This document shows positions 15,324 through 22,641 of a stretch of 24,000 nucleotides of DNA, one piece after another. The DNA is taken from the NCBI RefSeq assembly GCF_002934005.1, contig NZ_PGEM01000095.1:1137-25136 (forward strand). Direction: 5' to 3'. A program made the translations under genes and the position numbers. Under the pieces are notes generated by a model. That model was given only the letters and a program-made list of their open reading frames with translations, ran no database searches and was not told the DNA's origin. Each line of letters begins with the position of its first letter. The stretch's first letter is position 1. The stretch comes from Cuspidothrix issatschenkoi CHARLIE-1 (GTDB taxonomy: Bacteria; Cyanobacteriota; Cyanobacteriia; Cyanobacteriales; Nostocaceae).

Positions 15324-17054
15324 TTAAATTTCTGCTGGAGGTTGTACACCAAATAAATGTACATTACCATTCATGTTTCCTAAATCACGGAGAAAGCGCG
15401 ATCGCACATGAGTGGCATTTGGTGTTTGTCCACCCATAAATAAACAAACAATTTCTTGACAGTCGGTTTTTTCCTTTTGGTTGGGAATATTTATCCGTTT
15501 AATACTTGCCCAAGAACAATGTCCATTTCCTCCACCCGCTGCATTACCACCTAAATCTGGATTACGCTTATAATTTCGTGGGTGATTCTGATGATAAATT
15601 AAATACATTCCATCTCCACGAGTTGCTTCAGCATCATCTCTCTGATTCCATTTAATCGAAGATGTTTCTATAGGGTTGACATCAGGACCAGGAACTACAT
15701 AAATTGCACAGGTGGTAGGTGAAAAAACTTCTGCTTTGATATTACGGTTATTTGTTGATACTCTATCCTGCCAATGATTTCTTGCTTCTGTAACCCAATC
15801 ACTATAAGTTTTTGTCCAAGTTGTTGTATCAAGAGGTAAACCGAAGTTTTTAGATTTCAGTTCACCACTGTTTTGATCTTTTAATTTATGAGTCAATATT
15901 AACTGTGTTCCTCTAGAAGCTGCTCGACCAGTATTCATGTTAAATATATGTAATGGTCTACGCCAACCCCGACCAACACCGCCAACCATGACTGCAAAAC
16001 GAATTATTGGCAAAATGATTTTATTGAGGATATCTTTTGGTGCGCTAATTTGTAATTTACCTTTCCATAGATAAAAAAATGGTTGATTCTCAGACCTTTC
16101 TCCCCATGTTTTACCTTGAATCATTTGCAGACGTACACAACCTTTGCGACTCTTCCCATCTCCTGCATCTATCTCTCCCATCAGTTCAGCAACAGTCAAT
16201 TTAGCGAGATTTTCCGGCATTACTCCCAAGAAAAACCGCATTAACCAAGAGCGCAGCCAACCCCGCCAATGTGAAGGACGTAATTCCATTGTTTGAGTAT
16301 GTGGACCTGCGCTACCTTGACTATAAAGGCTAAATTCAAATTGTTTGACAGCATGGCCAGGATCAAGGGTAGGAGTTTGTGAAGAACTGGAAGTTTTTAA
16401 ACCGCCATATCCAGAAGCAGTACGACTACCAACACCATATAAACCTAGTGCCTGTTGCACCCATTCCCAAACCTCGTTTACTTCCTCTTCTGTAGCTTTT
16501 CCTGGTATTCCTCTCATTGCAACTATCACAGCAATTCTATCTTTACCATTACCTAAAGTATAAAGAGATAATGGTGTACATTGTCCCTGATGATATACCT
16601 GAAATTCTTGTTGAGGATTAACAATATCTAAACTTAATTTAGTTGCCGTTTCTGGCCAAGCATCAAGAAATTCAATTTTCCCAGCAGTAATTTTATCATT
16701 GTCTTGATGCCCTAAAAGCTGGTACATTCTTGGTTTAATTTCTGGTCTTTGTTTTGCCCATGCTCTTACTAAACCTCGGATACAAGAACCTGGAATATAA
16801 CCATGTAAAGGTAAATTTTTCAATGTTTCCCAATTTTGACTAACATTCCGTTTATCTTCTGGTCGTCCTTGATTTGGCCTCCACGCACCACAGGGTTCAC
16901 CAGCAGAAACTATAGTTTCTACATCTGGATGGGGAAATGAACCAACTTTAGCACGCCATTGAATCGTAAAAGTGTCTTTTTTAAATAAGCCAGATTGCGA
17001 TCGCTTTTGATGTTGCTTTTCCAGTAAATTAATTAATTCAATACCTGTATACAT
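15324..17054 (-). CDS. cmr6: Fused RAMP protein: N-terminal Cmr6-like module plus C-terminal Cmr1-like module
   Basis: The track start at 17090 is a TTG. An ATG at 17054 is preceded by AGGAGG at a 5-nt spacing and overlaps the cmr5 stop as TAATG. N-terminal module: YIPGSCIRGLVRAWA, IEFLDAWP, LSLDIVNPQ, GVGSRTASGYGGL (Cmr6 pattern). A Ser-rich linker follows (TSSSSQTPTLDP). C-terminal module: MELRPSHWRGWLRSWLMRFFLG and VGGVGRGWRRP (Cmr1-type pattern and G-rich loop). Confidence 0.8.
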   Translation of the reverse strand: MYTGIELINLLEKQHQKRSQSGLFKKDTFTIQWRAKVGSFPHPDVETIVSAGEPCGAWRPNQGRPEDKRNVSQNWETLKNLPLHGYIPGSCIRGLVRAWAKQRPEIKPRMYQLLGHQDNDKITAGKIEFLDAWPETATKLSLDIVNPQQEFQVYHQGQCTPLSLYTLGNGKDRIAVIVAMRGIPGKATEEEVNEVWEWVQQALGLYGVGSRTASGYGGLKTSSSSQTPTLDPGHAVKQFEFSLYSQGSAGPHTQTMELRPSHWRGWLRSWLMRFFLGVMPENLAKLTVAELMGEIDAGDGKSRKGCVRLQMIQGKTWGERSENQPFFYLWKGKLQISAPKDILNKIILPIIRFAVMVGGVGRGWRRPLHIFNMNTGRAASRGTQLILTHKLKDQNSGELKSKNFGLPLDTTTWTKTYSDWVTEARNHWQDRVSTNNRNIKAEVFSPTTCAIYVVPGPDVNPIETSSIKWNQRDDAEATRGDGMYLIYHQNHPRNYKRNPDLGGNAAGGGNGHCSWASIKRINIPNQKEKTDCQEIVCLFMGGQTPNATHVRSRFLRDLGNMNGNVHLFGVQPPAEI

Positions 17055-17584
17055 TAATCCTCCTGATAGGCTCTTGCCCAAAAATTCCAATGGTTAGCTA
17101 ATAACAAAGATTTCCGCCAAGTCAACATATATTCTTGAGGCCGGTTTCTAGTCATCTCTACTATTTGTGTCATTAATTCTTCTTTATTAGGTAGTTGATT
17201 TTTATCTACCGCTACCATCTGACCTAGTAATGATTCCCACACTGGTACAGTACGTTTTCGCACCTCATTATTATCCTGAGCATTTGCTTGATTCAGATAT
17301 CCAACCGCAGACAGTAGACCAAAAACTCTTAAATGTTGAGACAATCTTAAAACAGCAGTTAAATCATTTTTATCTAACTTCTGTTTGTTGTATATTTTCA
17401 AATACTTTTGAATATGTTCGTGAGCAGATAAACTCATTTGTTCTGGTAAAACTAGAGAGGAGTTATTATCGCTCCTAACAGTTTCGACCTTCACATTTTC
17501 AGAAAGACTTGGAGGTTTTGCTGTAATACTTGATTCCGGTTTTGGAGGATTAGATTTAGGTGGATACTTCTTATTTTTAGACAT
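17054..17584 (-). CDS. cmr5: Type III-B small subunit Cmr5-like, with a Pro/Ser/Lys-rich N-terminal extension
   Basis: ATG start. It sits between cmr4 and cmr6. It is an all-helical small protein with LRLSQHLRVFGLLSAVGYLNQ, resembling the Cmr5 core helix. The call rests on position plus weak motif similarity. Confidence 0.6.
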   Translation of the reverse strand: MSKNKKYPPKSNPPKPESSITAKPPSLSENVKVETVRSDNNSSLVLPEQMSLSAHEHIQKYLKIYNKQKLDKNDLTAVLRLSQHLRVFGLLSAVGYLNQANAQDNNEVRKRTVPVWESLLGQMVAVDKNQLPNKEELMTQIVEMTRNRPQEYMLTWRKSLLLANHWNFWARAYQED

Positions 17585-22600: not shown

Positions 22601-22641
22601 AGTAGCCCCCAAATCTTAGCTCGCCAATATTCTGCCGTCAT
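19639..22641 (-). CDS. cas10: Cas10/Cmr2 large subunit of a type III-B CRISPR-Cas effector (HD-like N-terminus, GGDD cyclase motif)
   Basis: ATG start, 1000 aa. WGLLHDP (H15-D16, nt 22594-22599) sits at the position of the Cmr2 N-terminal HD dyad. [30 protein letters not shown] is a Cmr2 hallmark. [14 protein letters not shown] is also present, as is [13 protein letters not shown] (GGDD at aa 756-759, nt 20365-20376). Confidence 0.92.

Follow-up and report, generated by a model that had tools for sequence, protein, structure and literature searches.

The CRISPR3 system on plasmid pSYSA of Synechocystis sp. PCC 6803 (Scholz 2013, PMC3575380) is the type specimen of subtype III-Bv of the CRISPR-Cas systems (Behler 2018, as cited in PMC6546367 and PMC12464536). 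The subtype is defined by a fusion of Cmr1 and Cmr6, the absence of Cas6 and the processing of CRISPR RNAs (crRNAs) by RNase E to 13/14-nucleotide (nt) handles (PMC6546367, PMC12464536, PMC3575380). In Synechocystis, the host RNase E cuts the CRISPR3 crRNAs, RNase J taking part as well (PMC12464536), and knock-outs of three Cas6 proteins left these crRNAs unaffected (PMC3575380). By contrast, the canonical III-B Cmr complexes of Pyrococcus furiosus, Archaeoglobus fulgidus and Sulfolobus (Cmr-beta) have separate Cmr1 and Cmr6 subunits, a Cas6-made 8-nt handle and a catalytic Asp in Cmr4. Here, we analysed a 24-kb stretch of the draft genome of Cuspidothrix issatschenkoi CHARLIE-1 (contig NZ_PGEM01000095.1, or C239, positions 1137-25136; hereafter the window, in which all coordinates without a contig name are given), which carries a type III-B effector operon on its minus strand. 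The draft consists of 243 contigs (4.55 Mb, 37.6% GC, completeness 95.8%), and C98, C220, C24, C47, C240 and the like denote its other contigs. We conclude, with a probability of roughly 85%, that the operon is an intact, probably functional III-Bv interference module orthologous to pSYSA CRISPR3, which would use crRNAs from arrays on C98 and C220 matured by the host RNase E.

The effector module comprises 5 open reading frames (ORFs) on the minus strand, each of them open and with a single terminal stop. The first, cas10/cmr2 (19639-22641, 1000 aa; PADLOC Cas10b, 1038 bits; TIGR02577, 2.7e-50), retains the HD motif near its N terminus (LLHDP, residues 14-15) as well as the GGDD cyclase motif (residue 756). 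It is followed by cmr3 (18467-19639, 390 aa; PF09700, 2.7e-61), cmr4, which encodes the backbone Cas7 (17599-18474, 291 aa; TIGR02580, 4.9e-27), cmr5, encoding the small subunit (17054-17584, 176 aa as the longest ORF; PADLOC PDLC01590, 1.3e-68), and a cmr6-cmr1 fusion (15324-17054, 576 aa; PDLC01212, 3.7e-45 for the Cmr6 part). Two genes for CARF-HEPN effectors follow on the same strand, the first of the Csx1/Csm6 type (13815-15284; PADLOC PDLC01795, 1.2e-136; HEPN motif RNNFSH) and the second at 12280-13797 (PADLOC PDLC01805, 2e-250; HEPN motif RNEIIH). The subunit set, the folds and the HD and GGDD motifs of Cas10 are shared with the canonical Cmr complexes, from which the operon departs in that cmr1 and cmr6 are fused and no Cas6 was found. 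Tight packing of the effector genes had been claimed in a preliminary description of the window, and all junctions were reproduced exactly on the coordinates. Two of them, cas10/cmr3 and cmr5/cmr6, are TAATG junctions with a 1-nt overlap, both preceded by a GGAGG-type Shine-Dalgarno sequence, and cmr3 and cmr4 overlap by 8 nt (ATGGTTGA). The gap between cmr4 and cmr5 is 14 nt, a value that is conditional on the start of cmr5, since the Cmr5 profile covers only residues 45-176 and an internal start is possible. The 1-nt overlap of cas10 and cmr3 is annotated likewise in Nostoc PCC 7524, and overlaps of such sizes are common in operons.

Assignment of the operon to III-Bv follows from the orthology of Cas10, from the likeness of the repeat, including compensatory changes in its stem, and from a fusion in which Cmr6 is N-terminal and Cmr1 C-terminal. 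The gene order, cas10-cmr3-cmr4-cmr5-(cmr6-cmr1 fusion) without cas6, is that of CRISPR3 (sll7090-sll7085). Cas10 shares 54% identity with sll7090 across 99% of its length, and Cmr3 shares 49% with its pSYSA counterpart; furthermore, a csx18-cas1-cas2 module, a repeat with a hairpin and an AU-rich tail, and a Cmr4 loop without the canonical Asp are common to both systems, although the csx18-cas1-cas2 module is located here on C98, outside the window. The similarity is much lower in the remainder of the complex, with Cmr4 being 33% identical and the fusion protein approximately 23% identical and roughly 70 aa shorter. The window Cmr5 belongs to PDLC01590, whereas those of pSYSA and Nostoc PCC 7524 belong to PDLC01383. 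By sequence comparison, Cmr4 and Cmr5 of the window represent a second backbone lineage within the III-Bv architecture. The two loci differ also in their surroundings: the pSYSA accessory set is replaced here by the two CARF-HEPN genes, no homologue of the slr7088-type gene, located between cmr3 and cmr4 in pSYSA, was found, and the adaptation genes, which diverge from cas10 in pSYSA, are, like the array, not adjacent to the operon on the contig.

The order of the two halves of the fusion protein, Cmr6 followed by Cmr1, was borne out by predicted structure and by profile comparison with the PDB. In the AlphaFold (AF2) model built from a 54-sequence alignment (predicted local distance difference test score, pLDDT, 88; predicted template modelling score, pTM, 0.89), residues 1-223 superpose on Cmr6 (VIA-align; 6s6b_I, Z 13.8; 3x1l_H, Z 12.8) and residues 232-571 on Cmr1 (9l7c_A, Z 20.4 over 285 residues with a root-mean-square deviation of 3.7; 4l6u_A, Z 19.1; 4w8x, Z 15.9). 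Consistently, the fusion profile matched PDB sequences of Cmr6 chains at 1.3e-18 and of Cmr1 chains at 3e-3 to 4e-2 (positions 252-329), and hhalign gave 95.8% for the comparison with the pSYSA fusion protein. The depth of the alignment was decisive for this assignment: the profile from a shallow 11-sequence alignment matched no PDB sequence, and an earlier model of the C-terminal half from 11 sequences (pLDDT 38) was unusable. The Cmr4 loop (GNILEIARE, 18379-18411, residues ~22-32) is 1 residue shorter than the canonical loop and, in the alignment to PDB chains, lacks the Asp that cuts the target RNA in P. furiosus Cmr4. The same short loop without Asp is found in all III-Bv Cmr4 proteins that were aligned, including that of Synechocystis (GNLLGIARE), and is a trait of the clade and no sign of decay. 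In the Cmr4 lineage of the window, the neighbouring position is still acidic (E, with D in one sequence).

The preliminary description left 2 options for the guides of this complex, namely, that crRNAs and a processing enzyme are encoded elsewhere in the genome or that the operon is starved of crRNAs. The genome-wide search that it proposed returned arrays and cas1-cas2 but not cas6. The 36-nt repeat of the window, GTCCCCACTCGCTGGGGATATTAATTGAATGGAAAC, has 30 exact copies in the genome, with 19 on C98, 10 on C220 and 1 in the window itself. On C98, the order is csx18-cas1-cas2-leader-array, with 19 full repeats; Csx18, Cas1 and Cas2 were confirmed by PADLOC, and Cas1 and Cas2 are 59% and 71% identical, respectively, to the CRISPR3 proteins. 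On C220, a leader homologous to that of C98, including a remnant of the 3' end of cas2, precedes at least 10 repeats, and the array runs off the end of the contig. All 27 spacers of the two arrays are unique and 31-44 nt long; they had no match in 50,697 phage records (blastn, 'distant' mode), no self-targets and no spacers in common with relatives. Whether or not C98 or C220 adjoins the operon, the effector has cognate guides in the genome. In Nostocales, arrays typically lie at a distance from cas cassettes and are functional, and fragmentation of arrays is typical of multicellular cyanobacteria (Reimann et al., bioRxiv 10.1101/2020.04.14.041012). The orphan arrays of Anabaena PCC 7120 likewise lie away from cas cassettes, although they are processed by Cas6, whereas the window repeat is of the RNase E type.

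These arrays bear directly on the idea of a crRNA-starved relic, in which the effector operon survives and decays after its guides have ceased to be supplied. The array next to the operon is down to a single full repeat and fragments, with no leader, and decay does occur in relatives, one of which (G004) has stop codons in cas10 and another (G011) a single repeat. Nevertheless, all 7 genes of the window locus are intact and carry their catalytic motifs, arrays with 100% identical repeats, leaders and unique spacers are present in the genome, and the proteins encoded by cmr4 through cmr6 are 99-100% identical to those of Dolichospermum circinale AWQC310F. Given the intact genes and the arrays with identical repeats, a relic is extremely unlikely, and the locus is an ordinary member of the known III-Bv family rather than a stranded remainder of one.

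The window repeat suggests how the crRNAs of the III-Bv module would be matured. It agrees with that of CRISPR3 at 30 of the 36 positions and, in its minimum free energy fold, forms a 5' hairpin (about nt 2-18) followed by an unpaired AU-rich 3' half that ends in GGAAAC. The RNase E substrate has been described as having this architecture (PMC12464536). When 11 variants of the repeat from related loci were compared, 98.5% of the cells of the stem (positions 2-7 with 13-18) are paired and 2 stem pairs have changed on both sides in a compensatory manner; these pairing and covariation values were matched by only 1 of 500 shuffles, with slid controls reaching 24-62% pairing. Around the site at which CRISPR3 is cleaved, the tail does not vary among the 11 variants. 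RNase E and RNase J are encoded on C24 (332 bits) and C47 (675 bits), respectively. Since III-Bv crRNAs are matured by RNase E with the participation of RNase J, the predicted 5' handle is (A)AUUGAAUGGAAAC, that is, by homology with CRISPR3, 13/14 nt and not the 8 nt expected in the preliminary description. The proposal that crRNAs and processing enzyme come from elsewhere thus holds in outline, with arrays of identical repeats on C98 and C220 and RNase E and RNase J encoded on other contigs, but the enzyme would be a host RNase and not a Cas6.

Consistently, Cas6 was found neither in the window nor in the genome. A family scan of window ORFs of at least 80 aa (PADLOC, Pfam and TIGR profiles) gave no match to Cas6, Cas1, Cas2 or reverse transcriptase, in agreement with the earlier claim that all four are absent from the 24 kb. 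Genome-wide, Cas6 was not detected with 3 hidden Markov models (PF01881, PF10040, TIGR01877) or by tblastn with pSYSA Cas6-1, Cas6-2a and Sll7075; no cas6 was found beside the cognate arrays on C98 and C220, and PADLOC analysis of 10 ORFs flanking other arrays gave no Cas6, the sole notable match being Cas5c of type I-C. The missing cas6 is no anomaly but a defining trait of III-Bv: with host RNase E processing the crRNAs, no Cas6 would be needed. A dedicated Cas nuclease could take the place of RNase E, either a divergent Cas6 encoded within the 4% of the genome missing from the assembly or the Cas5c of C240 acting in trans, an explanation to which the incomplete assembly, the presence of Cas5c and the high divergence of Cas6 proteins (PMC3575380) lend some room. 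We consider it very unlikely, because 6 independent Cas6 queries found nothing, the Cas6 knock-outs in Synechocystis left CRISPR3 crRNAs as before (PMC3575380), the window repeat retains the RNase E-type architecture and the I-C repeat of the genome is unrelated to it.

What follows for the III-Bv module, from the site of processing to the loading of the complex, its signalling and its expression, is our inference. Cas10 (with HD and GGDD), Cmr3, Cmr4, Cmr5 and the Cmr6-Cmr1 protein would assemble on crRNAs supplied by the identical-repeat arrays of C98 and C220, whose transcripts RNase E, helped by RNase J, would cut in the AU-rich tail of the repeat to leave the 13/14-nt 5' handle. The csx18-cas1-cas2 module on C98 would acquire new spacers. 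Upon binding of target RNA, Cas10 would make cyclic oligoadenylate and thereby switch on the two CARF-HEPN RNases encoded downstream, and its HD domain may also cut DNA. Several points weigh against this reading. Because the draft is 95.8% complete, a Cas6 could sit in its unassembled part. Cleavage of the window repeat by RNase E is deduced solely from the Synechocystis homologue, and the extrapolation is indirect given that the backbone lineage is far from that of pSYSA (Cmr4 33-36% identical, Cmr5 not alignable, fusion 23%). Since the genome contains two further type III loci, it is the synteny of relatives that links the arrays of C98 and C220 with this effector. Finally, cleavage of target RNA by a Cmr4 without the Asp may be altered or absent.

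The array adjacent to the operon, described earlier as decayed, is indeed reduced to one full repeat and pieces, all in the same orientation. R1 (23061-23096, minus strand) is the sole full 36-nt repeat in the window; R2 (22970-22988, minus strand) consists of the 3' 19 nt of a repeat and R3 (22910-22933, minus strand) of the 5' 24 nt with one mismatch. A 36-nt spacer separates R3 from R2, and a 33-nt palindromic dispersed element (23010-23042), with dozens of copies genome-wide, stands in place of the missing 5' half of R2. R3 is located ~290 nt before the cas10 start codon, the place of the last repeat in relatives, and there is no leader homology upstream of R1, so that a mini-array with a leader of its own was rejected. 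The local array is the trailer-end remnant of an array, riddled with small mobile elements. Upstream of R1 is a PAN-domain gene (in the region 23230-24000, ~52% GC) that was not found in 40 genomes of relatives searched. It forms a 1074-nt block between two CRISPR repeat pieces and looks like a foreign gene lodged in the trailer part of the array.

Beyond the window, a fourth repeat piece, comprising the 3' 16 nt in the same orientation, is located at C239:25310-25325, 174-189 nt past the right end. It abuts an element of ~135 nt resembling a miniature inverted-repeat transposable element (MITE), inside which C239 ends, 249 nt past the window. The repeat piece and the MITE at the contig end indicate that the array region extends beyond the window into unassembled sequence. 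The absence of an adaptation module, also claimed in the preliminary description, holds for the window, but may partly reflect the stop of the contig in a MITE directly after a repeat fragment. Inside this MITE-like element (C239:25321-25385 and at least 10 other contigs) is a (CTGTTCC)n heptamer run whose length varies, and contig breaks fall exactly at this run. The right end of C239 and the left end of C98 have 65 nt in common, which are this MITE; a join of the two contigs by their end overlap was rejected, since both enter the same MITE from the same side and it has at least 10 copies. At the other end of the C98 array (C98:3252-3506), a palindromic MITE interrupts the 20th repeat after ...TTAATTG. 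Next comes an array of a different repeat family, B, of which 141 nt are 100% identical to part of the array on C237 (C237:2798-2938), indicating either duplicated array segments or a tangled assembly.

It is possible, if short of an even chance, that the locus is in fact contiguous, with either csx18-cas1-cas2-leader-array of C98 or leader-array of C220 directly upstream of the PAN-domain gene and of the operon, and that its split appearance results from assembly breaks at repeats and MITEs. The fourth repeat piece adjoins the MITE at the C239 end in the same orientation, the C220 array leaves its contig end in a matching orientation, cas2, array and cas10 are contiguous in the nearest relatives, and the C239 fragment begins with TTAATTG..., the very motif after which the last C98 repeat is cut. 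Against this stand the entry of C239 and C98 into their common MITE from the same side, which makes them unjoinable through one copy, the multiplicity of that MITE, and the fact that the C98 array end meets another MITE, beyond which repeats of another family follow. A contiguous locus is compatible with the III-Bv assignment and rivals only the claim that the locus is split.

Ten loci with the same backbone lineage as the window were found, the closest being that of D. circinale AWQC310F. In most of them, an array with the same repeat runs on the strand of cas10 and ends ~300 nt upstream of that gene; where enough sequence is available, csx18-cas1-cas2 precede the array. The Nostocales III-Bv loci compared, those of AWQC310F (scaffold22), Dolichospermum FACHB-1091, Richelia sinica FACHB-800 and the Nostoc PCC 7524 plasmid, have the same operon and repeats that differ by 1-3 nt, and AWQC310F also has the same two CARF-HEPN genes. 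However, they carry csx18-cas1-cas2-leader-array directly 5' of cas10, where the window has the remnant and a foreign PAN gene between repeat pieces. Relatives display various stages of array or effector loss: in Anabaena sp. FACHB-1237, cas1-cas2 and cas10 are present with no repeat between them; G011 retains a leader and two repeats, one of them degenerate, that are separated by an insertion; and the cas10 of G004 contains about ten stop codons.

The identity of the window proteins to those of relatives is mosaic. Compared with AWQC310F, Cas10 and Cmr3 are 87% and 88% identical, whereas Cmr4, Cmr5 and the fusion are 100%, 99% and 99% identical. Cas10 is 72-73% identical to the Cas10 proteins encoded on plasmids of Nostoc PCC 7524 and Anabaena cylindrica. 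For Nostoc PCC 7524, Cas10 (73%), Cmr3 (77%) and the second CARF protein (76%; encoded by the gene after cmr6 there) are well conserved, but identity falls to 36% for Cmr4 and 23% for the fusion, and Cmr5 could not be aligned, a similar Cas10-Cmr3 pair being combined there with a pSYSA-type backbone. Conversely, in Scytonema NUACC26, the window-type backbone (55-65% identity) accompanies Cas10 and Cmr3 that are only ~30% identical. This pattern suggests that the cmr4-cmr5-cmr6/1 cassette has been exchanged as a unit, and the mosaic identity points to recent recombination. The preliminary description had argued for long residence from highly iterated palindrome (HIP1) sites. Their positions, 19822 in cas10, 16997 and 15398 in cmr6::cmr1 and 14694 in a CARF gene, are correct, but the argument does not discriminate: the operon has 3 sites in 7.3 kb (0.41/kb) against a genome mean of 0.43/kb, its GC content is unremarkable, and HIP1 density was rejected as a residence clock because it equals the genome mean. 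Likely donors are themselves HIP1-rich cyanobacteria, so that the sites offer no proof of long residence, which is likewise not shown given the mosaic identity and given that Cas10 was not found in two genomes of the same genus (only 84-86% complete).

Only three side observations go beyond the literature, namely, the apparent swap of the backbone cassette, a genome without detectable Cas6 and a seemingly foreign gene between repeat pieces. Two further type III loci and two further repeat families occur in the genome (C103:26438-26900, C61, C237, C49, C198, C240); on C103, cas10 and cmr3 are separated by an array of 7 repeats. Family B repeats end in ...GGAAGTGGAATTAATGGAAAC and family E repeats in ...GAAGTCGAATAAAAATGGAAAC, and both resemble the window repeat in their 5' hairpin and in an AU-rich tail that ends in AATGGAAAC. 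The only non-type-III system seen in the genome is type I-C (Cas5c, C240). Three type III loci with three repeat families that share the 5' hairpin, the AU-rich tail and the AAUGGAAAC ending suggest that RNase E-type maturation may be general in Nostocales and serve several systems. Tentatively, and with less confidence than even odds would imply, we propose that the genome may run several type III systems without any Cas6 and, at the same time, that the crRNA-backbone cassette (cmr4-cmr5-cmr6/cmr1) is swapped as a unit between Cas10-Cmr3 modules while repeat and handle remain constant. The apparent exchange of two backbone lineages under one Cas10-Cmr3 and repeat type could guide work on the compatibility of subunits, and a genome without detected Cas6 could guide work on the spread of Cas6-independent crRNA maturation. 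The locus is of value chiefly for annotation: a cyanobacterial III-B operon without cas6, cas1 and cas2 should be read as III-Bv with host RNase E and not as defective or orphan. It also illustrates how a canonical locus could take on a split appearance through MITEs, a foreign gene and breaks in a draft assembly.

The flanks of the operon are partly conserved. A promoter-like site, TAGACA-18-TACAAT (22672-22701, minus strand), lies ~30 nt 5' of the cas10 ATG; relatives have it in the form TAGACA...TA(C/T)AAT, and the DNA homology to them starts there. The operon has its own conserved promoter-like site upstream of cas10. A second non-coding block common to relatives, ~170 nt 5' of cas10 (within 22672-22830), reads ATGTCAAA...AAATATT..T(G/A)AT and may be a regulator site. 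On the 3' side, the CARF-HEPN genes are followed by a trio consisting of a MotA/ExbB-like gene and two small genes (9615-12196) and then by psbA. The trio is missing from D. circinale AWQC310F at the corresponding position, whereas Richelia sinica, Dolichospermum FACHB-1091 and one Dolichospermum metagenome-assembled genome, three relatives, carry it behind their CARF genes, a distribution that fits a separate neighbouring cassette.

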